This document shows, in pieces, positions 27,927-51,735 of a stretch of DNA of 64,000 nucleotides. The notes beneath the pieces are model-generated. The model searched no databases. It saw only the letters and a program-made list of their open reading frames with translations, and had not been told where the DNA came from. Both the position numbers and the translations under genes were made by a program. Position 1 is the stretch's first letter. The number at the start of each line of letters is the position of its first letter. The stretch comes from Candidatus Omnitrophota bacterium. Lineage in GTDB: Bacteria; Omnitrophota; Gorgyraeia; Duberdicusellales; 4484-171. The DNA is taken from positions 143,890 to 207,889 of the forward strand of contig JBAZGN010000004.1 in assembly GCA_041652815.1 (NCBI GenBank), read 5' to 3'.

Positions 27927-28757
27927 ATGGAACCTGCTAATGGAAAATATAAAATATTTCTCAAGGGTGGAAAAAACGCAATTCTGCTTATCCACGGCAT
28001 TACCGGTACGCCTTCTGAAATGCGTTACCTGGCAAAATACTTTAATCGAGCCGGATACACTGTCCTTTGTAATACCCTTCCACATCACTGCTCAACATTA
28101 GAGGAGCTTAAACGTGCTACCTGGCAGGAAATCGTCGCCTTATGCATTGAAGATTTTAAATTGCTTAAAAACGAGCACGAAAAAGTCTTTGTTGCAGGTT
28201 TATCTATGGGCGCATTGGTTTCCATACATCTCGCATCAAAATTTCCTGGCGATGTCGCCGGCATTATTGCCTTTGCTCCCACGCTATTTTATGATGGCTG
28301 GGCAGTGCATAAAGGCCAAGTTTTGCTTCCGCTTGCCTGGCACATACCTTATTTTCGTAACAGAATCGATATAAGGGAAAACCCACCTTACGGCCTTAGA
28401 GATGAAAGTTTACGTAATACAATTCACGCTTTCTACAGCAACGCAGGGAAAAGTAATCCGAATGAAAAAGTCGTTTTATTCGGAAGCCCTTTTTTCCCGT
28501 TGGCAAGCCTTTATCAGCACCATAAATTTTCAAAAGTCGTAAAAAAAGAATTACCTAAAGTGAAAACACCTATCCTTATAATGCATGCCAAAGAAGACGA
28601 TATGACAAGCCTTAAGAATGCTAAGTACATATTTAAAAATATCGGTTCACCGGATAAGTTGCTTATTGTCCTTGAAGATTCCTATCACATGATTGTAATT
28701 GACAAGGAAAAAGAGCGTGTCGCCAGTGAGACGATAAAATTCATGTCCAGGCTATAA
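27927..28757 (+). CDS. alpha/beta-hydrolase carboxylesterase / monoacylglycerol-lipase-like
   Basis: HGITGTPSEM oxyanion region. Nucleophile elbow GLSMGALVS. Asp (HAKEDDM) and His (DSYHMIV). Confidence 0.75.
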   Translation: MEPANGKYKIFLKGGKNAILLIHGITGTPSEMRYLAKYFNRAGYTVLCNTLPHHCSTLEELKRATWQEIVALCIEDFKLLKNEHEKVFVAGLSMGALVSIHLASKFPGDVAGIIAFAPTLFYDGWAVHKGQVLLPLAWHIPYFRNRIDIRENPPYGLRDESLRNTIHAFYSNAGKSNPNEKVVLFGSPFFPLASLYQHHKFSKVVKKELPKVKTPILIMHAKEDDMTSLKNAKYIFKNIGSPDKLLIVLEDSYHMIVIDKEKERVASETIKFMSRL

Positions 28758-28771
28758 AAATATTTATTCAA

Positions 28772-30265
28772 ATGAAATATGATGCGATAGTTATCGGTGC
28801 AGGTGTGGGCGGCCTTGCTGCGGCGCTTAAGCTTTCAGCGAGCGGGAAGAAGGTTTTGGTTATTGAAAGGCAACCCATACCCGGCGGCTGCGCAACAGCT
28901 TTTACCCGTAAAGGGTTTACTTTTGAATCCGCAATGCATTGTATTGGCACTCTCGGGCCTGATGGCGAGGTTCGGAGTTTTCTTGAGGAATTCGGTATCG
29001 ATAAAATGGTAGATTTCATTGAGCTTAAAGATTTCTGCCGCATAATCTATCCCGAGCATGATTTTGTCGTTGATTTCAGCAAAGAGAACTTCCTGAATTT
29101 CCTGAAGGAAAAATTTCCTCAGGAATGCCAGAATATAGATAAGCTTTTTTTGCGGTTGGATAAATTTTATAAGCAATTTGATAATTTTTGCCTTTCAAAA
29201 TTACCGCTCGTTTTACAACTTATTTTAAGCCCATTGATTTATCCTGAAATTATAAAACTTTCAAGCCTCACCGTAGCAGAGCTTCTTGGTAAATATCTAA
29301 AAGATGAAAAAATTAAAAGTATCATAGCGGATTTATGGAGATTTGTCGGTGTGCCACCAAGCGCGCTTTCTGCGTTTTATTTTCTGATTATTTTGCGGGC
29401 TTATTATTTCGAAAAAACCTGCTATGTAAAAGGCGGCTACAGTCAGCTTTTTAGGAAAATTGCGAAAAAGATAGAGGAAAACGGCTCGGAAATAAAATAT
29501 AACACAGCTGTTAAAACCATAGTTACCGAAAAAAATCGCGTAAAAGGTGTTATTACCGATAAAGGAGAGGAGTTTTTCGCAAAAACAATAATTTCCAATG
29601 CCAATGCGATTGAAACTTTAAGTGAACTTATTGACAACGCGGGAATTAGAGAAAAATACAGCAATGAGATAACTAGCCTGGAGAAGTCGGTGTCGGTATT
29701 CCAGGTATATTTAGGATTAACCGTACCTGCTAAAACGCTGGGAATGCGTAACTTTATGATTTCTTTAAATACCAGCTACGACCATGATAAAAGTTTTCGC
29801 GACAGCATAAGTGCAGAGCGTGATAATTGTCTTATTGAAATCGTTGACCACGCGCAATTGGATTCATCTTTAGCTCCTCAGGGTAAAGGAACGCTTCTGA
29901 TTATGACATTTGATTCGTACAAAAACTGGGAGGGATTGACTGATGAAGAATATAGGCAAAAGAAAAAAAGTCTTGCAGATAAGTTGATAAAACGGGCAGA
30001 AAAATTGCTTCCCGGGCTATCTCAACGTATAGAACTTATGGAAGTTGCTACCCCAAAGACAATGTACCGCTACACACTTTCTCCGGAAGGAGCAATCTAT
30101 GGTTTTGCTCATTCAGTAAAACAATCGGGAATATTCAGGCTAAGCCAGGAAACTTGCATAAAAGGATTGTTTCTTGCGGGCGCTTGGACTCGTCCGGGTG
30201 CCGGCGTGCATGCGTGTTTTATTTCCGGCCTTGATGCGGCAGAACTCGCGTTGAAACGCAAATAA
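28772..30265 (+). CDS. CrtI/phytoene-desaturase-family FAD-dependent oxidoreductase
   Basis: N-terminal dinucleotide fold YDAIVIGAGVGGLAAALKLSASGKKVLVIERQPIPGGCATAF. 497 aa. C-terminal GxW...PGAG typical of the CrtI / amine-oxidase fold. Confidence 0.75.
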   Translation: MKYDAIVIGAGVGGLAAALKLSASGKKVLVIERQPIPGGCATAFTRKGFTFESAMHCIGTLGPDGEVRSFLEEFGIDKMVDFIELKDFCRIIYPEHDFVVDFSKENFLNFLKEKFPQECQNIDKLFLRLDKFYKQFDNFCLSKLPLVLQLILSPLIYPEIIKLSSLTVAELLGKYLKDEKIKSIIADLWRFVGVPPSALSAFYFLIILRAYYFEKTCYVKGGYSQLFRKIAKKIEENGSEIKYNTAVKTIVTEKNRVKGVITDKGEEFFAKTIISNANAIETLSELIDNAGIREKYSNEITSLEKSVSVFQVYLGLTVPAKTLGMRNFMISLNTSYDHDKSFRDSISAERDNCLIEIVDHAQLDSSLAPQGKGTLLIMTFDSYKNWEGLTDEEYRQKKKSLADKLIKRAEKLLPGLSQRIELMEVATPKTMYRYTLSPEGAIYGFAHSVKQSGIFRLSQETCIKGLFLAGAWTRPGAGVHACFISGLDAAELALKRK

Positions 30266-36393: not shown

Positions 36394-37638
36394 ATGAGAC
36401 AGCAGGAGTTCGTCATAAGTTCGTTAGGCATAGTTAGCCCTAATGGTATAGGAAAAGAGGCGTTTTGGAAGTCGCTTGAAGAAGGCCGTTCTGCGATTTC
36501 AAATATTGAGTCTTTTTCAACGGAGAAATTTTCCGTCAATTGCGCAGGGGAAATAAAGAATTTCGACCCGAAAGTGTTTCTTGGCCCAAAAGGCCTGCGG
36601 AATTTAGACAGAAGTTCACTGTTTTTGATGACAGCGGCAAAATTAGCACTTGATGATGCCAAACTCGCAATAACCGAATCAAACACTGACGACATCGGAG
36701 TTGTAACCGGTACAACTTTTCCGCATTTATGGTCTATGATTGAATTCGACAGAGAAGTTTTTAAGGAAGGATTGGATTTTTCAAATCCCGCGCTTTTTCC
36801 CTCAACTGTTTTAAATGCAGCTTCTTCTCAAGTGTCTATCCGTTTTAATATTCAAGGGTTTAATGCTTCTGTAAGCACAGGCTATACTTCCGGCCTACAA
36901 GCTTTAAAGTATTCGCTTATGATGCTTGAGACAGGTAAAGCCAAAACGGTTTTTTGCGGGGCGGTTGAGGCGCTCGCGCTTTCTTTATTTTTTGGTTTCT
37001 ATAAATTAGGTTATATGGCAGGAATAAACGGGCAAATGATTAGTTGCCCGTTTGACAAGCGCAGAAATGGGCCAATGTTTTCAGAAGCGGCTGCGGTTTT
37101 TTCTATAGAGCATCCTGAAACCGCACAAGCGCGTCAGGCTGAAATTTTAGCGAAGATACGAAGTGTCGCGTGCTATTTTGATGGTTTTAAGATAGCAAGA
37201 ATTCATCCGGATGGAGAAGGCCTTGAAAAAGCAATAGTAAAAGTTTTAGATGAGGCAGGTGTGGCTACAACTGATATTGATTATATTTCAAGCTGTGCCA
37301 ATTCTTCATTTGAAATGGATAAGACGGAAGTGAAAGTTTTACAGAAAATTTTTGGCGATAACCTTTCAAGGATACCAGTAAGTTCTATAAAATCAATGCT
37401 GGGAGAAACGCTTTCTGCAGCCTCAGTTTTGCAGATAGCTTCTTGCATCGGAGCGATGAAGAGCGGCATAATCCCGCCTACAATAAACTACAAAGAAAAA
37501 GACCCGGAATGTGATATTGATTGTGTTCCCAATAAAGCGCAGAAAAAGGATGTAAAATTAGCTTTAGTTGTTTCTTTCGGCCCTGGAGGGTATAATAGTG
37601 CGTGTGTTTTGGAGAAATACGCAGATGATCACGGATAA
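36394..37638 (+). CDS. beta-ketoacyl synthase-fold protein lacking the Cys-His-His catalytic triad (chain-length-factor / KS-beta-like)
   Basis: Aligned to FabF, the ATACTSG active-site Cys is STGYTSG here (Tyr). The first His block HGTST is CANSS. The second, GHxxGAAG, is GETLSAAS. Overall KS fold retained (414 aa). Confidence 0.75.
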   Translation: MRQQEFVISSLGIVSPNGIGKEAFWKSLEEGRSAISNIESFSTEKFSVNCAGEIKNFDPKVFLGPKGLRNLDRSSLFLMTAAKLALDDAKLAITESNTDDIGVVTGTTFPHLWSMIEFDREVFKEGLDFSNPALFPSTVLNAASSQVSIRFNIQGFNASVSTGYTSGLQALKYSLMMLETGKAKTVFCGAVEALALSLFFGFYKLGYMAGINGQMISCPFDKRRNGPMFSEAAAVFSIEHPETAQARQAEILAKIRSVACYFDGFKIARIHPDGEGLEKAIVKVLDEAGVATTDIDYISSCANSSFEMDKTEVKVLQKIFGDNLSRIPVSSIKSMLGETLSAASVLQIASCIGAMKSGIIPPTINYKEKDPECDIDCVPNKAQKKDVKLALVVSFGPGGYNSACVLEKYADDHG

Positions 37639-37759: not shown

Positions 37760-38515
37760 GTGCAAGATATGAAAGACCTAAAAAACAAAACTGTAATTAT
37801 AACTGGGGGTTCAAGAGGGATAGGCAAGGCTTGTTGTCTTGCATTTGCCAAGGCCGGCGCCAATATAATTTTTACTTTTAACAAAAGCCAGAAAGAAGCT
37901 GACGAACTGGCTGCGCAAATTAAAAATCTTGGCGTGGAGTGTTTAAGCATACAGGCAGATGTGCGGGAATATAATCAGTGCCGTACAATTATTGAAAAAG
38001 CAATCGAACGGTTTAAGGAAATAGATGTTTTGATAAATAATGCTGGTATTACAAAAGATAAATCGCTTTTTATGATGCTTCCGGAAGAGTGGCATGATGT
38101 TATAAATACAAACCTTAACGGAACTTTCAATATGACGAAAGCCACAATCATAACCTTTTTAAAGCAGAAAAAAGGCTGCATAATCAATATGAGTTCAGTA
38201 AGCGGCATTGTGGGGCTGCCGGGACAATCGAATTACAGCGCCTCCAAGGCAGGTATAATAGGTTTTTCAAAAGCGCTGGCAAAAGAAGTCGCAGGGCAAA
38301 ATGTCCGAGTAAATGTAGTTTGTCCGGGTTTTATCGAAACTGATATGGTTGGTTCTATACGCGAAGACATCAAAAAAGAAGTCTTAAAAAGCATTCCGCA
38401 AAAACGTTTGGGAAAAGCAGAAGAAGTTGCGGATTTGTGCGTGTTCTTAGCTTCCGATAAAGCATCATATATTACAGGGGAAACAATAAAGATAGATGGC
38501 GGGTTGGCGATTTGA
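37760..38515 (+). CDS. 3-oxoacyl-ACP reductase (FabG-like SDR)
   Basis: TGGSRGIGKA cofactor motif. NNAG. Catalytic SSVSG...YSASKAG (S-Y-K). 251 aa. Colinear with FabG. Confidence 0.85.
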   Translation: MQDMKDLKNKTVIITGGSRGIGKACCLAFAKAGANIIFTFNKSQKEADELAAQIKNLGVECLSIQADVREYNQCRTIIEKAIERFKEIDVLINNAGITKDKSLFMMLPEEWHDVINTNLNGTFNMTKATIITFLKQKKGCIINMSSVSGIVGLPGQSNYSASKAGIIGFSKALAKEVAGQNVRVNVVCPGFIETDMVGSIREDIKKEVLKSIPQKRLGKAEEVADLCVFLASDKASYITGETIKIDGGLAI

Positions 38516-38626: not shown

Positions 38627-38875
38627 ATGTCTGACATAGGTGATTACAAAAGTGAGATTAAAAAGCTGGTTGCTGATATTGCCGAAAAAACTCCGGAAGA
38701 AATAACGGATGATGCCAAGTTCAGCGAAGATTTAGGCATTGACAGTATGATGGCGCTTGAAATAGTCGCCAGCATAGAAAAGAAATATAAAGTTGTTATT
38801 CCTGAAGGCGAAATTCCAAACATACGGTCTTTACAGAATATATATGATTTAATAGAAAAATTAGTTTCAAAATGA
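38627..38875 (+). CDS. acyl carrier protein
   Basis: 82 aa. Phosphopantetheine attachment motif DLGIDSMMALEIV. RBS AAGGAGG at 38614-38620. Confidence 0.85.
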   Translation: MSDIGDYKSEIKKLVADIAEKTPEEITDDAKFSEDLGIDSMMALEIVASIEKKYKVVIPEGEIPNIRSLQNIYDLIEKLVSK

Positions 38876-39012: not shown

Positions 39013-39255
39013 ATGGAGGTGGATGATATGCCTACGAAGAACCCGCGTTTAAATGTAGTTTTAGAACCGCCAGTATATAACGTTCTAAATGTTCTGGCAC
39101 ACCGCAAGGGAATTTCTTTGTCGCTTTTGGCCAGGGATTTAATAAAAGAAGCATTGGAAATTTATGAGGATCTTTATTGGCAGCGTGTTGCAAATTTACG
39201 GGAGAAAACCTTTTCCTATAAAAAAGCTTTGTCGCACAAAGATATTTGGGAATAA
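39013..39255 (+). CDS. ribbon-helix-helix antitoxin (RelB/ParD/CopG-like)
   Basis: NVVLEPPVYNVLNVLAHRKGISLSLLARDLI has RHH topology. Probable true start at 39028 (MPTKN). Overlaps the toxin gene by 10 nt. Confidence 0.6.
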   Translation: MEVDDMPTKNPRLNVVLEPPVYNVLNVLAHRKGISLSLLARDLIKEALEIYEDLYWQRVANLREKTFSYKKALSHKDIWE

Positions 39256-39527
39256 TGGCGTACAACATTTTTTATCATTACGATATCCCAAAGGACCTTT
39301 CAAAAATTCCCGGTAATATAAAGAAACGTATACGTAAGGCAATTGAACAGCGTTTATCGGAAGAACCCTTGAAATATGGAGAACCTTTAAAAAGGAGCCT
39401 TCACGGTTATTGGAAGTTGCGAGTAGGAGACTTTAGGGTTATTTTTAAAATCGAAAAAGAAAATATCGTAATTTTAAAAATTGGCCACAGGCATGATATT
39501 TATTCTAAAGTCGACTCACGCTTGTAA
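39246..39527 (+). CDS. RelE/ParE-family type II toxin
   Basis: 93 aa. Family signature ...LHGYWKLRVGDFRVIFKIEKENIVILKIGHRHDIY. Confidence 0.75.
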   Translation: MGIMAYNIFYHYDIPKDLSKIPGNIKKRIRKAIEQRLSEEPLKYGEPLKRSLHGYWKLRVGDFRVIFKIEKENIVILKIGHRHDIYSKVDSRL

Positions 39528-39567: not shown

Positions 39568-40035
39568 ATGGAAGGCATTTGGGATATAAATAAAATTCAG
39601 GAAATACTGCCGCAGAGGTACCCTTTTTTATTTATTGATAGAGTTATATCAATTGATGAAAAAGAGGGTAAAGTAACCTGCCTTAAAAACTTTACTGCAA
39701 ACGATTATTTTTTCACCGGCCACTTTCCCGGTAAGCCGGTTGTGCCTGGTGTCATTATTATTGAAGCAATGGCGCAGGCAAGTATTATTGGTTTTGCCGC
39801 AATTAAGCCTGAAATTGCAAGTAAGCATCCAACTTATTATCTCGGCAAGGTAGAAGCAAAATTCAGAAAAGCCGTAACTGTGGGCGACCAACTTATCATA
39901 GAAGTAAAAAAAGAAAAAATAGTAAATAATGCAGGCGTAGTTACTGCTGTGGCAAAACTTAATGGAGAAGTGGCGGCTGAAGCTAAAATTATGTTTGGAG
40001 TAATTCCAAATAATCAAGCAAGTGATAATAAATAG
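39568..40035 (+). CDS. 3-hydroxyacyl-ACP dehydratase (FabZ-like hot-dog fold)
   Basis: Catalytic motif FFTGHFPGKPVVPGVIIIEAMAQA (HxxxGxxxxP). Hot-dog length of 155 aa. Confidence 0.85.
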   Translation: MEGIWDINKIQEILPQRYPFLFIDRVISIDEKEGKVTCLKNFTANDYFFTGHFPGKPVVPGVIIIEAMAQASIIGFAAIKPEIASKHPTYYLGKVEAKFRKAVTVGDQLIIEVKKEKIVNNAGVVTAVAKLNGEVAAEAKIMFGVIPNNQASDNK

Positions 40036-40042
40036 CTGGAGA

Positions 40043-40526
40043 AATAACCAAGCTCCAAGATACAAAAACCAAACAATGACCAATAATCAAATTCCAATAA
40101 TCAAACAAAAGGGCTAAAGAATTCGATTTGGAAAAAAGAACTACCGAATTCGCCAAGGCTGTAATCAGGATATGTAAAGATTTACCCAGAAATTCAATGA
40201 ATGATAGATTGATAGGTCAAGTAGTTGGAGCATCTGGTTCTGTTGGGGCAAACTATCGAGAAGCAAATGATGCTTTGGGAAAAAAGGATTTTATTCAAAG
40301 ACTTAAGATTGCTCGAAGAGAAGCCAAAGAAAGTCATCATTGGCTTGAGCTTATTTCTGAAGCTAACACGCATAAAGTAGATGAGATCAAACCGTTGACA
40401 CAAGAAGCTGTAGAGCTTAAAAATATTTTATCAGCAATTATCAATAAGTCAGAATAGTTTTGTTTGGTTATTGATTGTTGAGATTTGTATATTGTTTGGA
40501 GCTTGTATCTTGGTTATTGGTTATTC
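40043..40526. mobile_element. miniature TIR element (family 2) carrying a four-helix-bundle protein gene as cargo, inserted between fabZ-like and the active KS gene
   Basis: Left arm AATAACCAAGCTCCAAGATACAAAAACCAAACAATGACCAATAATCAAATTCCAATAATCAAACAAAA. Right arm is its imperfect reverse complement (...TTTTGTTTGGTTATTGATTG...CTTGGTTATTGGTTATT). An empty relative lies at 8608-8715. Confidence 0.65.
40128..40457 (+). CDS. four-helix-bundle protein (TIGR02436 / 23S-rRNA-intervening-sequence protein family)
   Basis: LIGQVVGASGSVGANYREA...GKKDFIQRLKIARREAKESHHWLELI matches the family core (..SIGANIAEG..R.S.KDF..FL.IA.GS..E....L.L). Confidence 0.8.
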   Translation: MEKRTTEFAKAVIRICKDLPRNSMNDRLIGQVVGASGSVGANYREANDALGKKDFIQRLKIARREAKESHHWLELISEANTHKVDEIKPLTQEAVELKNILSAIINKSE

Positions 40527-40550: not shown

Positions 40551-41756
40551 ATGATTAACAGAGAGGTCGTGGTAACTGGTCTAGGCGCTGTTACCTCAAT
40601 AGGTATAGGAAAGGAAGAATTCTGGTCAAATGTTTTAAAAGGCAAATCCGGCATAAGCGATGTCACTTTATTCGATACTTCAAAATTTAAACGTCATCGC
40701 GCCGGTGAAATAAAAAATTTTAATTCATCCGATTTTATACCTGAAAGTATCGCAAAGTTCATCGGCAGGGCTTCCCAATTTGCTATAGCTGCAACTAAAC
40801 TTGCCCTTGAGGATGCCAATCTTACCTTAGATGACATTGAAATGCAAAAACTTGCAATAATTATCGGTACAACAATGGCTGAATCCAATGTAATGGATTT
40901 TTCCGGAGAAATGTTTATCAAAGAAGAGTGGGGTAGAATTACAAAACAGCTTCTGGTAAACACATTTTCTCCTTCCATTACAAGAAGCATAGGTTATTTT
41001 CTAAAAGCGAAAGGCGAAAATCTCCTAATACCCAATGCCTGCGCAGCCGGAAATTACGCAATCGGATATGGTTTTGATTTGATACGAAAGGGTGAAATTG
41101 AATTTGCTATAGTTGGCGGTGCTGAGGCATTATCGAGAGTAGCATTTCAAGGTTTTCAAAGATTATATGCAATGTCACCTGAAGTTTGCTCGCCATTTGA
41201 CAAGAACCGGCAAGGTATGCTTCTTGGAGAAGGCGCCGGCATTTTGATATTAGAATCTTTGGAAAGAGCAGTAAAAAGAAACGCGCCCATATATGCAAAA
41301 GTTTTGGAATATGGTTTATCCTGTGATGCTTACAATATGACAATTCCAAATAGAATTGGAATAAAAAAAGCTATGGCAAAAGCTATAAAAAATGCAAATA
41401 TCTCGCCCAATGAGATAGATTATATCAACGCTCACGGAACCGGTACAGTGCAGAACGATAAAGAAGAATCGAATGCAATAAAGGAAATTTTTAGAGATGA
41501 AAAAGTAGCTGTCAGTTCCATAAAATCAATGTTGGGACACACTATGGGTGCCGCAAGCGCCTTAGAGGCACTTACCTGTTGTCTTGCCTTAAAAGAAGAT
41601 ATAGCTCCTCCTACTATCAACTTTAAAACCCCTGACCCGCAATGTAACATTGATTGTGTTCCTAACCAAGCAAGAAAAATCAAAATCAACAAAGTTCTAA
41701 ATAATGGTTTTGCCTTTGGCGGTAATAACTGTTGTGTGGTTCTGGGGAAAGCATAG
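40551..41756 (+). CDS. beta-ketoacyl-ACP synthase, catalytically intact (KS-alpha / FabF-like)
   Basis: Active-site Cys in IPNACAAGNYAIG. His blocks INAHGTGT and SMLGHTMGAAS. N-terminal VVVTGLGAVTSIGIG. 401 aa. Confidence 0.85.
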   Translation: MINREVVVTGLGAVTSIGIGKEEFWSNVLKGKSGISDVTLFDTSKFKRHRAGEIKNFNSSDFIPESIAKFIGRASQFAIAATKLALEDANLTLDDIEMQKLAIIIGTTMAESNVMDFSGEMFIKEEWGRITKQLLVNTFSPSITRSIGYFLKAKGENLLIPNACAAGNYAIGYGFDLIRKGEIEFAIVGGAEALSRVAFQGFQRLYAMSPEVCSPFDKNRQGMLLGEGAGILILESLERAVKRNAPIYAKVLEYGLSCDAYNMTIPNRIGIKKAMAKAIKNANISPNEIDYINAHGTGTVQNDKEESNAIKEIFRDEKVAVSSIKSMLGHTMGAASALEALTCCLALKEDIAPPTINFKTPDPQCNIDCVPNQARKIKINKVLNNGFAFGGNNCCVVLGKA

Positions 41757-41938
41757 TCAAAATTAGCTATTTATGTGGTGTAGTAAAAATAGTTATGCCG
41801 AAAATAACGTACAAAATAGAAATAGTTAGCTTGTCCAGGCCTTATCTTATGAACGATTTGTCAAAGATACCCACTATATTTACTTGTTTATTAGAATAAG
41901 CGCTAATATATATATAGCTTATAAATTACAAAATAAAA

Positions 41939-43021
41939 ATGGAAAACAATTTTATAATTAAAAGATGTAAACGCTGTGGATTGCCAAGCGCTTATCCGGG
42001 GATTCTATTGAATGCAAACAAAACTTGCAATTACTGTTCATATTTTGATTTGTATAAGGATAGAGAAATAATTATCAAGAGGCAATTAAAAGAAGATTTT
42101 ACTAGAATTATAAATAATGTTAAAAGAAAAAACAATAAATACGATTGCATTGTAGCCTATAGCGGAGGAAAAGATAGTTCATTTCTCCTATCGTTTCTCA
42201 AAAAGAAATTTAAACTAAAAATTTTAGCACATACCTTAGATCATAGTTTTACTTCAGCGCAGGCGTTTGTAAATATAAAAAAAATTACAAAAGCTCTTAA
42301 GATCGATTCAAAAATTACGAAACCTGACATACGAGTTATGAAAGAATTGTTTCGATTTGCTTTAACAGAAAATATACCTTACCCAAAAGAAATATTGGCA
42401 ATGATGAGCCAAGTTTGCGCTGTCTGTTGGGGAATGGTATTTGGTACAACAATACATTTAGCTACTCAGCTAAAAATACCTCTTATGTGCATAGGATTTA
42501 CTCCTGGCCAATATCCCTCCATAAGTTTAGAGAATTTTTTGAAGGTTGAATCATGTTTATTTCTTTCGAAAAAAGTATATAAAGATGACCCTATGGATGT
42601 AATAAAAATCCTTACCGATCCAATAATTGAAAAATTTGGCGAGAAAGTTCGTAAATATTATTTCAGAAGTCAGTATATTCCAAACGACTTATTCGTTCCA
42701 AAAATATTACTTCCTTTCCATGTGCTCATTGATTACGATGAGAAAACGATACTTAAAGAAATCACAAACTTAGGGTGGATTAAGCCTTCAGATACTGACT
42801 CTTGTTCGACAAATTGCCTTATAAATACCTTAAGTAGTTATATCACTGTAAACAAAAACGGCTATCATCCTTATATAGGTGAATTAAGCCAGCTCGTCCG
42901 TGAAGGAAAAATAAAACGAGAAGAAGCTATAGAAGCCGAAAAAATTGAAAAAGAATCTTATGCAATGAAATTTTCGTGTAAAAAGTTAAAGTTAAATAAA
43001 CATTATCTAATTAAAAGATAA
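41939..43021 (+). CDS. PP-loop ATP-pyrophosphatase superfamily enzyme, WbuX-like (N-acetyl-sugar amidotransferase family) with N-terminal Cys4 zinc ribbon
   Basis: C-x2-C...C-x2-C (CKRCGLP...CNYCSYFD), then the PP-loop SGGKDSS in CIVAYSGGKDSSFLLSFL. Pattern typical of TIGR03573-like proteins. Confidence 0.6.
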   Translation: MENNFIIKRCKRCGLPSAYPGILLNANKTCNYCSYFDLYKDREIIIKRQLKEDFTRIINNVKRKNNKYDCIVAYSGGKDSSFLLSFLKKKFKLKILAHTLDHSFTSAQAFVNIKKITKALKIDSKITKPDIRVMKELFRFALTENIPYPKEILAMMSQVCAVCWGMVFGTTIHLATQLKIPLMCIGFTPGQYPSISLENFLKVESCLFLSKKVYKDDPMDVIKILTDPIIEKFGEKVRKYYFRSQYIPNDLFVPKILLPFHVLIDYDEKTILKEITNLGWIKPSDTDSCSTNCLINTLSSYITVNKNGYHPYIGELSQLVREGKIKREEAIEAEKIEKESYAMKFSCKKLKLNKHYLIKR

Positions 43022-43024
43022 AAA

Positions 43025-44635
43025 ATGCCAGAAAAATATAATAATTGTCCTTCACAGGTAAAGAATTTTAAAAGTGTAATAAATAAAAGTTTACATATAC
43101 TGAATAACGTTGATTCAAAAGTTTTTTTCTCGCCATATTCTACAATTCCAATCATTTCGCAAATGTTAGGACTTAACACTCCTATAGCGGGTAGTGGAGA
43201 TTACCCTTATTCAATTACCTCAATTATTTTTCAGATTGAGAAGGAAAAACAAATATTGCAAGAATTATTCAATATCCCACTTATTGAAAAACGGAAAATT
43301 ATTGATGAAATATATGAAATGATAGCACCAGTTTTATTAGGTGAAGAGGACAATTATATAGAGCTTTTGTTCAATATTAAATATAAAAATGAATTAAGGT
43401 TTGCGTCAATCGATAGTAAAAATAATTTTAAGAGATTATTTAAGGAAAAATTTTCTATACTGCAACCATTTATCGCGCGTTTCAATAATAAGAAAGGTGA
43501 TTTTGGGTATATCGTTCATTACGGTTATTTAGAAGATTTATATAGGGAATATGATTTTTTACAAAAAATTCCAAACTCGCTTGCTAATGAATGGCGTCAA
43601 TATTCTTATCCGATAGTCAACGAAATATTAATAAAAGGTGTTAATACCCGCGTTCCAGGCGTTAAATCCGATATCAATGGTTGGGTAATTTTTGTTACTA
43701 ACCACACACGAGAATTACTTGAAAGCGGAAAGCTACGAAAACATAAGATTCTACAGGCTGCGCGATTAGCGGAAAAATTAGGAGCTAAAATTATCGGTAT
43801 GGGCGGGCTTATTGCCTCATTTGCACAGGGTGGGTATTGGCTTTCTGAACAAATGCCAAATGTTGGTTTCACTACGGGGCATGTATATACTATCGGAAAT
43901 ATTATAGAAATGGCGAGAAATTGTTCAAAAAAAATTAATCTAAATATTAAAAAAGCAACGATAGCGATAGTAGGAGCGGCAGGTTCTATTGGTTCTGGTT
44001 GCGCTAAACTTATTGCGGAAGACAAGCCTAAACATTTTATTCTTCTTGATCTTAGTACGTTTAGCGCAACTCAGAAATTGGAGGAACTTAAAAACAATTT
44101 GCAAAACATTTCTCCGAAAACAAAAATAGTATTATCTAATAATTTCTTTGATGTTAGACAGGCTGACTTGGTGATTGTCGCTACAAATTCTCCCACGTCT
44201 ATTATAAAGCCAGAATATCTCAAAAAGGGAGCAATAATTATTGACGATTCTTTTCCGAAAAACGTTTCCAAGGAAATTCTAAAGATAAGGAATGACATAA
44301 TTTTATTAGAAGGAGGAATGATGCGGCTACCAATTTCCATAGATATTACTTCGGCACGTAATATGCCTGACCTAATGGATCTGCCATTAACACGTGCAGC
44401 TAGTTGTAAGGAAACTTATGGTTGCCTTGCGGAAGTTTTAGTTTTGGCTTTGTATGGTTATAAAAAAAATTATGCTTTAGGATACGCTGATCCAGTATTA
44501 GCTAAAGATATAGTAAACCGCGCAAAAAAAATCGGTTTTTCTTCAGCTCCTCTGCAATGTTTTGACGAAGCGATTGACGACAAAAAATTCATATTAATAA
44601 AGAGGATTTTAAAAAAAGAAAGACAAATTGTTTAA
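43025..44635 (+). CDS. long-chain acyl-[ACP] reductase (cyanobacterial Aar)-like domain with a ~160 aa N-terminal extension of unknown function
   Basis: From ~aa 160 colinear with S. elongatus Aar: ISALGGFTSI vs IIGMGGLIASFA; FTTGNTHTAYVI vs FTTGHVYTIGNI; ATVAVVGATGDIGSAVCRWL vs ATIAIVGAAGSIGSGCAKLI; VLIDGGYPKNL vs IIIDDSFPKNV; YVLNGGVVE vs ILLEGGMMR. Confidence 0.6.
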   Translation: MPEKYNNCPSQVKNFKSVINKSLHILNNVDSKVFFSPYSTIPIISQMLGLNTPIAGSGDYPYSITSIIFQIEKEKQILQELFNIPLIEKRKIIDEIYEMIAPVLLGEEDNYIELLFNIKYKNELRFASIDSKNNFKRLFKEKFSILQPFIARFNNKKGDFGYIVHYGYLEDLYREYDFLQKIPNSLANEWRQYSYPIVNEILIKGVNTRVPGVKSDINGWVIFVTNHTRELLESGKLRKHKILQAARLAEKLGAKIIGMGGLIASFAQGGYWLSEQMPNVGFTTGHVYTIGNIIEMARNCSKKINLNIKKATIAIVGAAGSIGSGCAKLIAEDKPKHFILLDLSTFSATQKLEELKNNLQNISPKTKIVLSNNFFDVRQADLVIVATNSPTSIIKPEYLKKGAIIIDDSFPKNVSKEILKIRNDIILLEGGMMRLPISIDITSARNMPDLMDLPLTRAASCKETYGCLAEVLVLALYGYKKNYALGYADPVLAKDIVNRAKKIGFSSAPLQCFDEAIDDKKFILIKRILKKERQIV

Positions 44636-44646
44636 TTTTTTTTATT

Positions 44647-46080
44647 ATGGATAGATACGATGTGGTTGTAATCGGAGCAGGTATTGGAGGGCTAATCTGT
44701 GGCATTTATTTAGCTAATGCTGGTTTAAAAGTATGCATCATAGAAAAAAATGCTAATGTGGGAGGTTATTGTGCTTCCTTTACAAGAAATAACTATAAAT
44801 TCGATATAGGTGTTCACTATCTGGGTGGTATCAAAAAAGGACTTTTAGGTAAGATTCTGGAAGAACTTGACTTAAAAGATAGAATACAGTTTAATCAATT
44901 TGATCCGGCCGACAAGATTATTATCGATGGAAAAAAAATTTATATTAGAGCAGATCCAAAAGAGACAATCAAAGAATTTATAATTAATTTTCCAAAACAG
45001 AAAGACAATATTGAGAAATTTTTCAGCTTTATAATGGAAAATAATTTTGCTCAAATATATAAGAAAGTTAGCGGTTTAACATTTAGGAATTTATTGGATA
45101 GTTTTTTTGACGATTATGAACTAAAAACGATGATTGAAGGATTAACATATAACATTGGTATTTCAGCCAAATTTGTAGCAGCAATAACTGCAGTGATTTT
45201 ATATAAAGAATACTTATTGGACCCTGGGTATTATCCCATTGGGGGAATGCAGAATTTTCCAGATGCGTTAGCCAATAAATTTGAACAGAATGGCGGTAAA
45301 ATAGTTTTAAATAAGGAAGTTGAAAATATATTTATCCAAAATAAAAAAGTGAAAGGAGTGAAGTTAACTACTGGAGAATTAATAAACTCTAAAATTTTAA
45401 TTTCTAACGTTGATGCTAATCATACATTTAAAAAACTTTTAAATAAAGTAAACAGTAAAGGATATAATCTTTTAAAAAAGCTATATATATCTCCTTCTTT
45501 GTTCGTTGTCTATCTAGGGCTTAAAGAAAATCTAACTAACCTTACAAATGAAACTTGTAATATATGGAGTTTTGATAATCCAATCCAGGACAGCTATTTT
45601 TCTAACTTAAAGAAAAATCTTAAAAATATACCATTTGTCATGGTGAGTTTTCCATCTGCTCACGAATATAGAGAAGAAGACAAAATATCTAATAAAAGTA
45701 CTATGCAAATTTTTCAATTTGCACCATTTGAATCTAAAAGATTTTGGGAAGGCAGTAAAGACTTGATGTATCAAAAAACTATTGAGCGAGTGGAAAAAAT
45801 TTTACCTGGTTTAAAAGATGAAATAAAAATAAGCGTTCTTGCTACTCCTTTTACTTTTTATAAGTATACCTATAGTAAAAATGGCGCTGCTTTTGGTTGG
45901 CTTTCTACCATTGATCAACTAAAATCAACAATATTTCCATGGAAAAGTGAAATAAGCAATCTTTTTTTTGTGGGTCATTGGGTCACCACGGGCGAAGGAC
46001 AAGGTGGTATTTCAAAAGTGATATTTTCTGCAAGAAAAATAGCTATGTTAATTCTTCATGAGATAAGACAAAAAAAGTAA
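44647..46080 (+). CDS. CrtI/phytoene-desaturase-family FAD-dependent oxidoreductase (second paralogue)
   Basis: YDVVVIGAGIGGLICGIYLANAGLKVCIIEKNANVGGYCASF dinucleotide fold. 477 aa. C-terminal GHW...GEGQGG. Confidence 0.75.
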   Translation: MDRYDVVVIGAGIGGLICGIYLANAGLKVCIIEKNANVGGYCASFTRNNYKFDIGVHYLGGIKKGLLGKILEELDLKDRIQFNQFDPADKIIIDGKKIYIRADPKETIKEFIINFPKQKDNIEKFFSFIMENNFAQIYKKVSGLTFRNLLDSFFDDYELKTMIEGLTYNIGISAKFVAAITAVILYKEYLLDPGYYPIGGMQNFPDALANKFEQNGGKIVLNKEVENIFIQNKKVKGVKLTTGELINSKILISNVDANHTFKKLLNKVNSKGYNLLKKLYISPSLFVVYLGLKENLTNLTNETCNIWSFDNPIQDSYFSNLKKNLKNIPFVMVSFPSAHEYREEDKISNKSTMQIFQFAPFESKRFWEGSKDLMYQKTIERVEKILPGLKDEIKISVLATPFTFYKYTYSKNGAAFGWLSTIDQLKSTIFPWKSEISNLFFVGHWVTTGEGQGGISKVIFSARKIAMLILHEIRQKK

Positions 46081-46082
46081 AT

Positions 46083-48260
46083 ATGACTTTATTTGCAGCC
46101 TCATCTTTATTAATATTTGTTACTAGTTTGAGTTTAGCAATTTTTTTATTATGGGATAAAGCTAGGCAAAAACTTAGAAGGATTCTAGCAATCTTTTGCC
46201 TTTTTGCTGTCATATGGGGTTGGGCCGGTTTTAAGTTGGCTGTTGCAGGCTCTATTGAAAAGGCGTTTTATTGGTGGCAGATAGGATATATCTGCATAAT
46301 CTTTACACCGGTTATATATTCTCACTTTGTTTTTACCTTTCTAAATTACCGCAAAAAATTTTTAATTTTTTCATTTTACAGCTTAGCGCTAATTTTCTTA
46401 TTGTTTACATTTCTATCAGAAAAACTATTTTTAGGCAATTTGCGTTTTTCCTTTGAACAAATTTATTGGGTTGATTGGGTAAAATATAAAAATCCGATAT
46501 GGCTGGTATTTTACATTTATTTTTATTGGATAATATTAGGATATTCATTTATGCTGCTCCTAAAAGAATTAAGATGTTCATCTGGATTGAAAAAAGAGCA
46601 GATTAAATATTTCATTCTTGGTTCAATGATGGGATGGCTAGGCGCTCACGGAGATTTCCTTCCTGTCTTTAGGATAGAAATATATCCATACTCCAATTTC
46701 CTAATTGTAATATATCCCGCTATTTGGGCCTACGCCATCCTGAAATACCGTCTCATGGACATCCGCGTTTTTATTTCTCGCGCCGTTACGTTTATAATAA
46801 GCTATACCTTTTTATTAGGCGTTCCTTTTTTCTTTGCTTACAGAATGTATCCAGTTTTATACCCTATATGGGGAAAGCATTGGTGGCTTGCACCGGTTGG
46901 CCTTATGACATTTTTTGCAACACTCGCTCCTTTAGCTTATGATCAAATACGAAGAGGGGTTGAGAATAGATTTTTAGCTGAACAAAAACGCTATCAAAAA
47001 TTATTACTTCAGGCAGCAAGCGGAATGGCAAGGGAACATAATTTAAATAGATTATCGAAGCTCATTGTGTATATTGTTAAAAGGATTGTTAAGATTGATT
47101 TTGCTGCAATTTTTCTTGAGGATAAAGAACATAAAACATATAGACTTAAGGCAATACGTGATTCTGGAGTAGGGGGCTATACTTTAGAGTTTGCTTATGA
47201 TACTGAGTTTATTAGATTTTTAAAAAATAACAAAGAGCCCTATTTATATGAAGAGCTTCCTCTTGGTGTGCAGAGTTCGCTAACTTTTCCAAAACGTATA
47301 AGTCTGATTTTACCGTCTTTGATTGAAGATAATCTTTTGGGTTTCGTGGTTCTGGGAGAAAAAAGCAATCGTGAACCATATTCAGAAGATGACATAAATG
47401 TATTTAAGATACTTACCAATCAGGCAGCGATGACTATCGAGAACTGTTTGTTTTTCGATGAATTTAAAAACGCGCAAGAAAAAATATTTACTGCGGAAAA
47501 ATTAGCTTCAATAGGCGGTATGGCTGACGGAGTTGCGCATCAGATAAAAAACCGGCTTAATCATTTTTCTATAGCATCAGGAGAACTCAAGTGCGAAATA
47601 GAAGATTTCATTTCTAAGCGCAAACCACTTGTTGAACAAAATCCTGATTTAGCTAAAACTTTTGAGTACGCTATTGAAATAGCCAATTCTTTGATAAAGA
47701 ATGTAAAGATGACAGATGGTATTGTAAGAGGCATATTAACTTATGCTCGTGTTGAAGAAAAAGAAACATTCTTTTCTCATTTTTCCCTGAAGGAAGTCAT
47801 CGATGCTGCACTTGAGTTGCTTAAGATAAAACATGAGCTTCAGGAATTTCCTTTGCAGATTGACTTAGATAATTGTGATATGATTTATGGTGTAAAAGCG
47901 CAGATTATGGAATCAATGTATAACATTCTCGACAACGGCTATGAGGCTAGTTTGGATAAGAAACATCATCTCTCAAGAGAGGAAAAGGAAAAATTTACGC
48001 CTTTGATTAAGCTTAAGCTTACAGAAGGAAGTAATAATTACCGTATTGAAATTTCCGATAATGGATCAGGCATTAAAGATGAAGCCAAACAAAAGATATT
48101 CGCCCCATTTTTTACCACAAAATCCTCCTACAAATCAGGAACCGGCATTGGTATGTATGTGGTTAGAAGAATTGTCGAAGAAAACCACAAAGGCCGAATC
48201 TGGTTCGAATCCGCCCATATGCAGGGAACAAAGTTCATAATCGAATTGCCGAAAAAATAA
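46083..48260 (+). CDS. sensor histidine kinase: N-terminal ~8-TM sensor module, GAF domain, HisKA, HATPase_c
   Basis: Polytopic N-terminus. GAF-like middle. H-box GGMADGVAHQIKNRLN. N/G boxes ISDNGSGI...FTTK...GTGIGMYVV. Confidence 0.8.
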   Translation: MTLFAASSLLIFVTSLSLAIFLLWDKARQKLRRILAIFCLFAVIWGWAGFKLAVAGSIEKAFYWWQIGYICIIFTPVIYSHFVFTFLNYRKKFLIFSFYSLALIFLLFTFLSEKLFLGNLRFSFEQIYWVDWVKYKNPIWLVFYIYFYWIILGYSFMLLLKELRCSSGLKKEQIKYFILGSMMGWLGAHGDFLPVFRIEIYPYSNFLIVIYPAIWAYAILKYRLMDIRVFISRAVTFIISYTFLLGVPFFFAYRMYPVLYPIWGKHWWLAPVGLMTFFATLAPLAYDQIRRGVENRFLAEQKRYQKLLLQAASGMAREHNLNRLSKLIVYIVKRIVKIDFAAIFLEDKEHKTYRLKAIRDSGVGGYTLEFAYDTEFIRFLKNNKEPYLYEELPLGVQSSLTFPKRISLILPSLIEDNLLGFVVLGEKSNREPYSEDDINVFKILTNQAAMTIENCLFFDEFKNAQEKIFTAEKLASIGGMADGVAHQIKNRLNHFSIASGELKCEIEDFISKRKPLVEQNPDLAKTFEYAIEIANSLIKNVKMTDGIVRGILTYARVEEKETFFSHFSLKEVIDAALELLKIKHELQEFPLQIDLDNCDMIYGVKAQIMESMYNILDNGYEASLDKKHHLSREEKEKFTPLIKLKLTEGSNNYRIEISDNGSGIKDEAKQKIFAPFFTTKSSYKSGTGIGMYVVRRIVEENHKGRIWFESAHMQGTKFIIELPKK

Positions 48261-48263
48261 GTA

Positions 48264-49883
48264 TTATTTAATTTGTGTGATTGGTATCTTTATCGTAACC
48301 TTTGTTCCCTTTATTTCACCACTTTCCACCCCAATCTCTCCCTTATGTTCCTTGATTATGCCATAGATAATTGACATACCTAAGCCGGTTCCTGTATCTT
48401 TGGTAGTGTAGAAAGGGTCAAAGATATGTTCTAAATCTTTCTTAGCAATACCTTTTCCAGTGTCACTGATGGTTAGTTCGATATAATCAGGGTTTGCTTT
48501 AGTTGCTACACTTAACTGCCCACCTTCTTTCATTGCATCAATTGCATTTAAAAATAAATTACAAAATACCTGCTGCATTTGATTCGGATCTATACTTAAA
48601 AGAGGGAGCGAGTTGTCATAATTCCTGACCAGTGCGATTTTATACTTAATAAGGCTATTGCTAAGCAGGGAAAGCGTCTGATCAATGACTTGATGGATAT
48701 TAACTTCGCGTAACTGTAGTGGCTTTGGCTTGGAGAAATCCAGGAGTTGCTGAACGATGTCGTTTATTTTGTTTACTTCCATGCTTACAATCTTATGAAA
48801 TTTCTCAACAAACTTAGGGTCAGTGTATTTCTCGGGCAGGTATTCAGTAAAAGTCTTAATGCCGGTTAAAGGATTTTTTATCTCATGTGCCATACCAGCA
48901 GCAAGAGTACCCACTGCCTTAAGACGTTCCGCGCGTTTTAATTCTTCTTGTGCTTTTTGAAGCTCGTCAGCTAGAGCTGCTTGGGAACCCTTGAAAAAGT
49001 ATTTATCAATAAAGGATTGGATGGCATTCTTCAAGGGCTGGAATAGTAAAGTAAATATAATCAAAAAACCTATAGTCAAGGATATAGATTTATAACCTAC
49101 GAATCCACGGAAAGAAGATTCTACGATGTAGATTAGAATAAAATAACTTACAGTAATTAATGTAACTAAAATCGAATAAACAGCAGTTCTTTTAATGACA
49201 ATGTTTATATCGAGCAAATGATGGCGGAGGATGGCGTAGGTAGCAATTCCTGCCCAGAGACTTCCGAGATAAGTTAAAAATGGCAAAAGGGGAACATTTA
49301 CGTCGTATCCTAGAAGAAAATTTCCGCTACCTCCTGCAAATCCAAGAAACGTGCTCCAAAATAAATATTTCAATTGATTTCGTCTTCCTCCTGATGAATT
49401 TATGTATGCCTCGAATAATTTGCGTAGAGAATATACAACGCAAATACTATAAAAGATAGCCAGAAAGTGATAAGCTAAACCCGGTATGGCAAAATATTTA
49501 ACATAAAATTTAGGTACCACATCTGCTACCATATATTTTGTTGGAGACAGGCCGATAAATATAATATTTAATAAATAAGCAAGGCGTATTGCCCAGCCTT
49601 TATTCTTGATTTGTAAAAACGAAATAGTGAAATGGAAGAAAAATGTTGATATAAAGAATACCCCGATTAAAAGTAAGTGTGCCCAAAAAAAAGCCGTTTG
49701 ATATTTATCGCAGGATATCAACCAAATTTGACTAAAACTCCACAAGAATACACTAAAAGAGTGCAAACCGTAAAGCTTATGGCTTTTCTCGGTGCCTTTA
49801 ACAAACAGAAAAATTCCAAAAAATAACGATACCAAAGCTTCAATCCATAAGGCAATAACAAAATTAATTAGTAAAGAGTTCAT
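48264..49883 (-). CDS. sensor histidine kinase with polytopic N-terminal sensor domain (tandem paralogue A)
   Basis: H-box LAAGMAHEIKNPLTGI. HATPase ISDTGKGI...FYTTK...GTGLGMSII. About 100 aa of the catalytic core are identical to the upstream paralogue. Confidence 0.8.
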   Translation of the reverse strand: MNSLLINFVIALWIEALVSLFFGIFLFVKGTEKSHKLYGLHSFSVFLWSFSQIWLISCDKYQTAFFWAHLLLIGVFFISTFFFHFTISFLQIKNKGWAIRLAYLLNIIFIGLSPTKYMVADVVPKFYVKYFAIPGLAYHFLAIFYSICVVYSLRKLFEAYINSSGGRRNQLKYLFWSTFLGFAGGSGNFLLGYDVNVPLLPFLTYLGSLWAGIATYAILRHHLLDINIVIKRTAVYSILVTLITVSYFILIYIVESSFRGFVGYKSISLTIGFLIIFTLLFQPLKNAIQSFIDKYFFKGSQAALADELQKAQEELKRAERLKAVGTLAAGMAHEIKNPLTGIKTFTEYLPEKYTDPKFVEKFHKIVSMEVNKINDIVQQLLDFSKPKPLQLREVNIHQVIDQTLSLLSNSLIKYKIALVRNYDNSLPLLSIDPNQMQQVFCNLFLNAIDAMKEGGQLSVATKANPDYIELTISDTGKGIAKKDLEHIFDPFYTTKDTGTGLGMSIIYGIIKEHKGEIGVESGEIKGTKVTIKIPITQIK

Positions 49884-51692: not shown

Positions 51693-51735
51693 TAAAACGT
51701 GTTACGTGTTACTTGTTACGTGATACTATTTGGGG
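51693..51735. repeat. direct repeat copy 1 (GTTACGTGTTACTTGTTACGTGATACTAT), flanks the RR/4HB/XRE module with 53263-53305
   Basis: A 31 nt core is nearly identical to 53277-53307. A related reverse-oriented fragment lies at ~37700-37740. Confidence 0.6.

Follow-up and report, generated by a model that had tools for sequence, protein, structure and literature searches.

We describe here the gene at positions 43025..44635 (+) of a 64,000-nucleotide stretch of Candidatus Omnitrophota DNA (contig JBAZGN010000004.1 of assembly GCA_041652815.1, positions 143,890 to 207,889), which is called the window below. It is a real gene, an ATG-to-stop open reading frame (ORF) of 536 aa covering exactly these positions, and its product matches, at 100% identity, a protein annotated as hypothetical in a metagenome-assembled genome of Candidatus Omnitrophica. 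The product was found to be a long-form member of an uncharacterised branch of the superfamily that is formed by the acyl-acyl carrier protein (ACP) reductase Aar, the N-terminal region of PigE (PigE-N) and the putative terminal amidation domain (TAD) of certain nonribosomal peptide synthetases (NRPSs). Its N-terminal part is an orphan all-helical domain (aa 1-158; 43025..43498, +), which is followed by an Aar/TAD-like catalytic body (aa 159-536; 43499..44635, +) composed of a macro-like subdomain, a Rossmann subdomain and C-terminal helices. In the window the gene stands in a tight plus-strand run made up of a ketosynthase (KS), a PP-loop enzyme, the 536-aa ORF, a CrtI-like gene and a seven-transmembrane (7TM) histidine kinase (40551-48260). 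The protein thus comes from a known superfamily and combines an active site of the TAD type with a new domain and a new obligate partner.

The family to which the protein belongs comprises more than 100 sequence clusters from Omnitrophota, Planctomycetota, Acidobacteriota, Poribacteria and Spirochaetes, and its more than 100 full-length homologues are 520-545 aa long. In the databases its members are named hypothetical, "amino acid dehydrogenase" or "fatty aldehyde-generating acyl-ACP reductase", the last of which is probably misleading.

Fold of the catalytic body

A preliminary description, made from the sequence alone, had likened the C-terminal part of the protein to Aar. The homology stood, while the orthology did not. 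In Pfam the 536-aa protein gave generic Rossmann matches alone (aa 302-423), and among the NCBIfam models the top score was that of the PigE N-terminal region (NF053554; E 1e-34, aa 177-532), a match of 120 bits against a cut-off of 850 that covers only profile positions 21-360 of 837 and leaves out the aminotransferase domain. The Aar model TIGR04058 was matched at E 1e-22, and since its 81 bits miss the equivalog cut-off of 449.7 the protein was rejected as an Aar orthologue. A family profile built from 46 members was compared with the PDB, and Aar residues 5-321 of 341 were aligned to positions 160-490 (E 9e-24), followed by PigE (48-360, E 2e-23) and the carmabin TAD (80-303, E 3e-19); at the sequence level the alignment to TAD spans aa 225-437 only. 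PigE-N and TAD are as close to the protein as Aar is, or closer.

The AlphaFold2 model, which was built on the family alignment, reached a predicted local distance difference test score (pLDDT) of 92.5 and a predicted template modelling score (pTM) of 0.92 over the whole ORF. When this model was searched against the PDB with Foldseek, the best match was TAD (9e4s and related entries, E 2e-19), and Aar (6jzu) was matched at E 8e-17 with a template modelling (TM) score of 0.79 on the target, over the complete fold including the non-Rossmann N-subdomain. After TAD and Aar came unrelated dehydrogenases at E ~1e-5 or worse. The modelled fold indicates that aa 160-536 are a complete Aar/PigE-N/TAD-type fold with Cys467 as predicted nucleophile; membership of the superfamily is solid, Aar orthology is not.

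A place in the glutamyl-tRNA reductase (GluTR), shikimate dehydrogenase or malate/lactate dehydrogenase class, which would have displaced the Aar-like assignment, was rejected, as these families gave Rossmann-only matches (E 1e-3 to 1e-7) against the whole-chain matches of the Aar type. The GluTR model (hemA) scored E 5e-5 and 22 bits in the Rossmann region only, as against 1e-22 for Aar, with which the non-Rossmann parts and the catalytic Cys also align, and the Foldseek match to GluTR was equally poor (E ~3e-5, TM ~0.3).

Active-site and cofactor signature

Like Aar (TIGR04058; 6jzq/6jzu), the catalytic body has a macro-like N-subdomain, a Rossmann subdomain and C-terminal helices, a TTG motif, a catalytic Cys in a CxAE helix and an xPKN loop, and its substrate would likewise be delivered by an ACP. 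The Rossmann glycine motif of the preliminary description is present as GxGxxG (G317-A-A-G320-S-I-G323-S-G325, aa 317-325; 43973..43999, +), and Cys467 (44423..44425, +), which sits in the sequence GCLAE, is the equivalent of Aar Cys294 in its CFAE helix and of TAD Cys2238, the acyl-enzyme nucleophile.

TAD has been described as an Aar-like, NAD-specific domain with an invariant Cys and a TTG motif, in which Asp2102 at the end of beta2 excludes NADP and the second Asp (Asp2170) of a DDSG-cisPro loop, a Gly in Aar, stacks on the nicotinamide (Rankin et al., bioRxiv 10.1101/2024.10.28.620694). At three of these sites the protein aligns with TAD and not with the two proven reductases. In its TTGH motif (aa 283-286; 43871..43882, +) it has His286, as in TAD (ITTGH), where Aar (TTGN) and PigE (TSGN) have Asn. 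Asp342 (44048..44050, +), with which beta2 of the Rossmann subdomain ends as "liLiD", aligns with Asp2102 in the ITLCD of TAD, whereas Aar, with a cofactor site of the NADPH type, reads LILTAR and beta2 of PigE has a non-acidic end. The nicotinamide loop DDSFPKN (aa 407-413; 44243..44263, +) had been given in the preliminary description as the DGGYPKN of Aar; the sequence reads IDDSFPKN, and it departs from Aar at the very positions that separate TAD (DDSGPH) from the reductases, PigE having DVALPRD. In the alignment of DDSFP on DDSGP the Asp-Asp-Ser-x-Pro pattern is retained with Gly replaced by Phe, and Asp408 takes the position of TAD Asp2170, at which Aar has Gly and PigE has Val.

This signature was found to be nearly invariant. 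Both His286 and Asp408 are conserved in 107 of the 108 long forms, the remaining one having a gap, and all 108 carry a His at the His286 position and an acidic residue (Asp or Glu) at the end of beta2. Shorter relatives come in the same two flavours, either His/Asp or Asn/small residue. The acidic beta2 residue predicts use of NAD(H), and these alignments place the cofactor and active-site residues with the TAD type and not with the Aar/PigE type. In view of His286, Asp342 and Asp408, the formation of an aldehyde should not be taken for granted.

The nucleophile is Cys in 101 of the 108 long forms. In the other seven, a sub-clade with 40-87% mutual identity (P0040, P0041, P0043, P0047, P0049, P0107 and P0111), it is Ser, and YSSF[S/A]E replaces YGC[F/L]AE. 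One of its members, at L030:10001-11596, stands in an intact KS-ACP-partner-enzyme-kinase operon, and most members keep Cys461, a family-specific residue ("SCKE") six residues upstream of the catalytic site. In Aar, Cys294 acts by an established mechanism with covalent hydride reduction. A Ser nucleophile would be easier to reconcile with acyl transfer than with such a reduction.

The N-terminal helical domain

Residue 5 of Aar already falls on position 160, which leaves aa 1-158 as an addition to a complete Aar fold. They show a mean column identity of 43%, and S36, Y38, Q46, G49, L50, G56, G58, S63, R90, Y97 and P102 are near-invariant. Two motifs stand out, SPYS..SQxLGL..GSGxSPYS in the most conserved element (aa 36-66; 43130..43222, +) and RRxxIDExYDMIAPxLL. 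The model is all-helical with six main helices (aa 12-153; stand-alone pLDDT 89), and the conserved loop at aa ~48-63 is flexible and of low confidence, with pLDDT ~60 at aa 51-60. A mis-called start or spurious N-terminal extension was rejected on the ground that this part is conserved in more than 100 homologues.

That the first ~160 residues match nothing familiar, as had been noted from the sequence, was borne out by every search made. Pfam and NCBIfam gave no match, no Pfam family being common to more than one of 32 members, the best entry of the profile comparison with the PDB had an E of 0.17, and Foldseek against the PDB gave at best E 1.5 with TM <0.3. No similarity to the PP-loop partner was seen. 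A hidden Markov model (HMM) search of 1.84e9 representative proteins returned 23 matches, all from the domain's own family, and the idea of a mobile module reused elsewhere was dropped on this exhaustive result. On the model and these searches, aa 1-158 are a family-restricted helical orphan domain.

The PP-loop partner and its linkage to the enzyme

The gene upstream of the ORF (41939..43021, +), which ends, stop codon included, 3 nt ahead of the reductase gene, encodes a NASAT/WbuX-like PP-loop ATP pyrophosphatase of 360 aa. NASAT-family proteins are defined by an SGGxDS PP-loop and a CxxC...CxxC zinc motif (PMC10607449). The partner matches the family model TIGR03573 over its full length (2e-39) with 135.8 bits, which is below the threshold of 203.2, and its profile matched the NASAT structure 8wex at E 1.5e-17. 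Its SGGKDS loop is invariant (aa 75-80) and the N-terminal tetracysteine zinc ribbon (C10/C13/C30/C33) is conserved, as in WbuX, WbpG and LpNASAT. Weak PP-loop similarities to LarE/QueC-type enzymes and to TtuA/TtcA were also seen, and several partners have been named "QueC" by the Joint Genome Institute (JGI).

The partner also has an extra triad, C160xxC163...C293 (42416-42427 and 42815-42817), which is invariant in the partner and in a sister clade and corresponds to a gap in the solved LpNASAT structure (8wex); the triad may be a second zinc or structural metal site or an Fe-S site. A further feature is a conserved insertion of ~20 residues (partner aa ~197-222), which is carried by the enzyme-linked partners and absent from the sister clade. 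NASAT genes lie among sugar-nucleotide and O-antigen genes, while the neighbours here are carrier-protein (ACP), KS and Aar-like genes, and no ammonia supplier of the HisH/HisF type accompanies the partner.

The sister clade (29-37% identity) stands in the order carrier protein with a GIIDSTG motif, AMP-ligase and PP-loop enzyme, inside polysaccharide-biosynthesis clusters, from which it follows that the wider PP-loop clade is carrier-protein-associated. Examples are L027:6155-8990, L028:7715-9050 and L029:4425-8975, the last of which adds a GNAT gene and a NadE-like NAD-synthase homologue. The sister clade is another uncharacterised carrier-protein-linked PP-loop system, in which, by analogy, the acyl group on the carrier, once turned into an amide, would be a NASAT-type substrate.

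Loci were drawn from GTDB genomes, metagenomes and exact-protein look-ups, and those with at least 700 nt of upstream sequence were taken as informative. The partner orthologue was found directly upstream of the enzyme in 34 of these 36 loci, including one in which it is frameshifted (L021, scored as present), and the linked loci span five phyla (Omnitrophota, Planctomycetia/Pirellulales, Terriglobia/Bryobacteraceae, Poribacteria and Spirochaetes). The two genes typically overlap by 1-20 nt or are spaced by 3 nt. The exceptions are L037, in which an AbiEii toxin has been inserted between the pair and the flank is only 1.2 kb long, and L059, a divergent 37% form. In the same two metagenomic loci a nitroreductase-family gene adjoins the long-form gene (L037:2804-3385, L059:816-1415).

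Presence of the partner goes together with that of the N-terminal domain. It is missing beside short relatives that have no such domain (P0120/L024 and, in L007 and L014, the second paralogues) and likewise beside forms with a degenerate domain that have lost the SPYS-GSG-SPYS element (P0115/L025 and L055/L056, hhalign 95%). Thus, the partner is obligate and translationally coupled and tracks with the N-terminal domain, and it is more than the neighbour with a possible role in the fate of an aldehyde that the preliminary description had seen in it. No natural fusion of the two proteins was present among the best 120 matches of either, and in a literature search we found no mention of an Aar-type reductase with a PP-loop enzyme and no follow-up on TAD.

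The gene cluster

The remaining genes of the cluster resemble those of a type II fatty acid synthase (FAS). A KS-like protein of the chain-length-factor (CLF) type (KSb; 36394..37638, +) is followed on the same strand by a FabG-type ketoreductase (37760..38515), a dedicated ACP (38627..38875) that is orthologous to the ACPs adjoining the pair in Terriglobia and Poribacteria loci, a FabZ/FabA-type dehydratase (39568..40035) and a FabF-like KS (KSa; 40551..41756). KSa keeps an intact Cys-His-His triad that KSb has lost, which is the KS/CLF arrangement. Where at least 5 kb of sequence was available on each side (10 loci), KS genes were present in nine, and ACP and CrtI-like genes in eight each. 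One minimal locus, from a Spirochaete, has only the ACP, partner and enzyme genes together with an AMP-binding ligase, and no KS; another has KS, ACP, partner and enzyme. A ParE-toxin/ribbon-helix-helix (RHH) antitoxin pair and a 23S-rRNA intervening-sequence (IVS) four-helix-bundle gene (39013-39527, 40128-40457) interrupt the FAS-like operon of the window between ACP, FabZ and KS, and a second IVS-protein gene is found at 52161-52574. The G+C content drops to 31% at 42001-46000, where the partner, enzyme and CrtI-like genes lie, against 34-41% in the flanks.

The gene 11 nt 3' of the ORF (44647..46080, +) encodes a CrtI/CrtD-like flavin desaturase, and in this, as in the PP-loop identity of 41939-43021, the preliminary description was right about the neighbours. 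From the two neighbours it had suggested a different downstream fate for the aldehyde (oxidation, desaturation or amination). Carotenoid desaturases were matched over the full length (4rep, 4dgk, ~1e-18) and amine oxidases in the FAD-binding part only, and since the full-length relatives are carotenoid C-C desaturases the chain is a more likely target of the enzyme than a head group in the form of an aldehyde or amine. A role as amine oxidase on an aminated product is for the same reason not favoured.

A second CrtI-like gene, 29% identical to the first, lies with an alpha/beta-hydrolase gene at 27927..30265 (+), 8 kb upstream. The two mirror the terminal gene pair of a Terriglobia cluster (L001:16489-18993), so that they are a possible detached part and the locus may be split in two. 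Between the putative halves are genes for a YgiQ-type radical-SAM protein (Radical_SAM_N and DUF3362; 34037-35812) and a DegT-family aminotransferase (31361-32575), neither of which is kept beside the pair in other genomes.

Downstream of the CrtI-like gene, at a distance of 2 nt, a HisKA_7TM-GAF histidine kinase is encoded (46083..48260, +). A HisKA_7TM kinase was found no more than 2.5 kb downstream of the long-form gene and on its strand in 10 of the 18 loci with enough flank, and the product could be sensed or regulated by such kinases. In the window three HisKA_7TM kinases (46083-48260, +; 48264-49883, -; 49880-51490, -) and a receiver-only response regulator (51716-52108, -) follow the cluster. 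The two on the minus strand have near-identical cytoplasmic halves (SQA.LADELQKAQEELKRAERLKAVGTLAAGMAHEIKNPL...QQLLDFSKPKP) and 7TM parts that differ, which suggests a recent duplication or gene conversion. HisKA_7TM kinases are also encoded directly after short Aar-like paralogues (L007:392-3377, L014:8355-11095, L024:8001-10854). One short protein (L024:7239-10854; 405 aa, His/Asp type, without the N-terminal domain) has a PlsC-type acyltransferase on one side and a HisKA_7TM kinase on the other, a hint that the short forms play a part in lipid metabolism.

Aar pairs with an aldehyde-deformylating oxygenase (ADO) in alkane synthesis, while the enzyme described here has a PP-loop partner in a KS/CLF cluster. 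As the preliminary description had stated, ADO is absent: no ADO or ferritin-like match was obtained among the window ORFs or in related loci. The alkane pathway was rejected for this reason.

Clusters of similar composition have been called "ladderane". Such FAS II-like clusters were reported in non-anammox bacteria (Rattray et al. 2009, PMC2649909), and antiSMASH calls them in Omnitrophota (10.1101/2022.12.20.521206), in both cases with unknown function. They share with the window cluster divergent FabF paralogues without active-site residues, an ACP, FabZ, FabG, phytoene-desaturase-like flavoenzymes and the phyla in which they occur. Their descriptions, on the other hand, name no Aar-like or PP-loop gene, and no radical-SAM/methyltransferase core adjoins the pair here. 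The "ladderane" label for the window cluster would be our own, by analogy. A true ladderane pathway is unsupported, as in the genome scan the pair was not found in the anammox (Brocadiia) representatives and the ladderane papers do not list these genes.

Discussion

We propose, with a probability of about 0.4, that the protein is one half of an obligate module of two enzymes, namely the half that off-loads the carrier protein, and that the module carries out nitrogen chemistry on an ACP-bound chain. The module-level statement is well supported, and the specific nitrogen chemistry is put forward as a hypothesis. A (poly)unsaturated acyl chain would be built on the ACP and transferred to Cys467, as in Aar and TAD, and the acyl-enzyme would then be resolved together with the PP-loop partner. 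The partner might dock on the N-terminal helical domain, or take the product through it, the candidate contact elements being the conserved flexible SPYS-GSG-SPYS loop and the partner-specific insertion. The most economical chemistry would turn the thioester into an amide, as proposed for TAD, after which the amide carbonyl could be activated by ATP in the manner of NASAT, with an amidine or, after elimination, a nitrile as the outcome. This sequence of steps follows from the assumption that the two proteins work as has been proposed for their respective closest relatives, and the product would be a nitrogen-headed lipid or polyene and not the aldehyde of an alkane pathway.

The TAD-type signature, the Ser sub-clade that has kept its partner, the partner linkage in 34 of 36 loci, the intact motifs and group-specific insertion of the partner, the carrier-protein setting of the partner's sister clade and the lack of an ADO in the window all point to such a module. 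The TAD of the CarI/VatR NRPSs (9e4s/9e4x) is the best Foldseek match of the protein and has TTGH, the beta2 Asp, the DDS-x-P loop and the invariant Cys in common with it. That TAD, however, forms the C-terminal end of an NRPS module, behind the peptidyl carrier protein, whereas here a discrete protein is served by a free ACP and has an extra N-terminal domain and a conserved PP-loop partner; a nitrogen-supplying partner of the NRPS-fused TADs was sought and none was found, and TAD activity was not reconstituted (bioRxiv 10.1101/2024.10.28.620694).

Several points weigh against nitrogen chemistry in the module. The "TAD-like" chemistry is itself hypothetical, TAD activity never having been reconstituted, and the two proven relatives, Aar and PigE-N, are thioester-to-aldehyde reductases with slightly higher sequence scores. 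The loci have no conserved glutaminase or other supply of ammonia, and the extra CxxC...C triad of the partner could mean Fe-S/sulfur chemistry or a structural metal. It is from co-occurrence only that we infer a physical contact between the N-terminal domain and the partner, and the loci with degenerate-domain forms are few, two of them having short flanks. All functional statements in the proposal are computational.

Of the other explanations, that of a plain reductase of the Aar/PigE type, which was the view of the preliminary description, is a strong rival and only somewhat less likely than our proposal. The acyl chain would here be passed from the ACP onto Cys467 and reduced by NADH to a free aldehyde, while the PP-loop partner acts elsewhere, for example in amidating the distal carboxylate of a starter unit or in modifying a later product, and the N-terminal domain would serve in ACP docking, dimerisation or as a product channel. 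There is an analogy for the first of these in the AsnB-like OxyD, which makes malonamyl starters. The top sequence scores go to PigE-N (1e-34) and Aar (1e-22; profile 9e-24), the catalytic Cys and the CxAE motif are conserved, and reductase activity is the only one ever demonstrated in the superfamily; PigE-N (PMC8341465) and Aar (bioRxiv 10.1101/2024.10.28.620694) are proven thioester reductases, and thioester reductases that depend on NADH exist (PMC9594044). The N-terminal region of PigE (prodigiosin 2-methyl-3-amylpyrrole (MAP) pathway; NF053554; 4ppm; PMC8341465) has the similar Cys motif GCMAE, and its pathway also holds an amine-oxidase-family flavoenzyme (PigB). PigE differs in being fused to a pyridoxal phosphate (PLP)-dependent class-III aminotransferase and in having Asn/Val at the signature positions, a non-acidic beta2 end, no helical N-terminal domain and no PP-loop partner. 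The His/Asp signature common to TAD is absent from both proven reductases, the Cys-to-Ser sub-clade keeps the whole module, and minimal loci without a KS still hold ACP, partner and enzyme. Moreover, if the two steps were unrelated, the strict adjacency, the translational coupling and the co-variation of partner and N-terminal domain would be left unexplained.

A split system resembling a carboxylic acid reductase, in which a free acid (fatty or polyenoic) is activated through adenylation by the PP-loop enzyme, the acyl group passes to Cys467 or the ACP thiol and the Aar-like body reduces it to the aldehyde, appears improbable. PP-loop enzymes do adenylate carboxylates, LarE goes on from the adenylated carboxylate to a thioester with the enzyme, the partner has a weak similarity to the LarE/QueC type, and the tight pairing with a thiol-dependent NAD enzyme would fit. 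Yet an activated thioester is already available, from a dedicated ACP with KS/CLF or, in the minimal Spirochaete locus, from a separate AMP-binding ligase, so a second activation would be redundant.

Still less probable is sulfur chemistry, in which the triad would bind a [4Fe-4S] cluster and the adenylated carbonyl oxygen would be replaced by sulfur to give a thioamide or thioacid-type head group. PP-loop sulfurtransferases of the TtuA/TtcA type bind such a cluster, and the triad, which LpNASAT lacks and which does not vary in the partner or its sister clade, is accompanied by weak TtuA/TtcA PP-loop matches. Only the PP-loop region aligns, however (E ~1e-3), and the Cys triad does not fall on the TtuA ligands; no sulfur-carrier or cysteine desulfurase gene is conserved nearby, and the triad may be a structural zinc site. 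Least probable of all is a QueC/QueF-like route from acid to amine, in which the PP-loop enzyme would make an amide and then a nitrile (2 ATP) for reduction by the Cys enzyme, through a thioimidate, to a primary amine, as the QueC-type similarity and the Cys nucleophile next to the nicotinamide are outweighed by the unexplained role of the conserved ACP, a fold unrelated to QueF and a Cys-to-Ser clade incompatible with thioimidate chemistry.

The proposal of an off-loading module can be carried further, to a pair that would be a self-contained ATP- and NAD-dependent machine for turning a carrier-protein thioester into a nitrogen head group, with a product that is the ligand of the co-operonic 7TM histidine kinases. 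We consider this extension a long shot. If true, it would mean that a free-standing, genetically tractable version of the TAD reaction exists, with its missing nitrogen-handling partner identified, and that a previously unrecognised lipid-signal synthase/sensor system is present in Omnitrophota and other phyla.

The family is sizeable, phylogenetically broad and unannotated, and joins an orphan helical domain to an Aar/TAD body. Its two-residue signature, His/Asp as against Asn/small residue, splits the Aar superfamily into two active-site types and is a testable predictor of reductase versus TAD-type chemistry. For the study of the TAD reaction and its nitrogen source, the family offers a discrete, soluble-sized homologue with a strictly linked ATP-dependent partner and a free ACP, which should be much easier to reconstitute. 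A conserved tailoring and off-loading module is also added to the "ladderane-like" FAS clusters of uncultured phyla, and the recurrent linkage to 7TM kinases hints at regulation by, or sensing of, its product. The pair may thus offer a tractable way into the TAD reaction and into what the "ladderane-like" clusters do.

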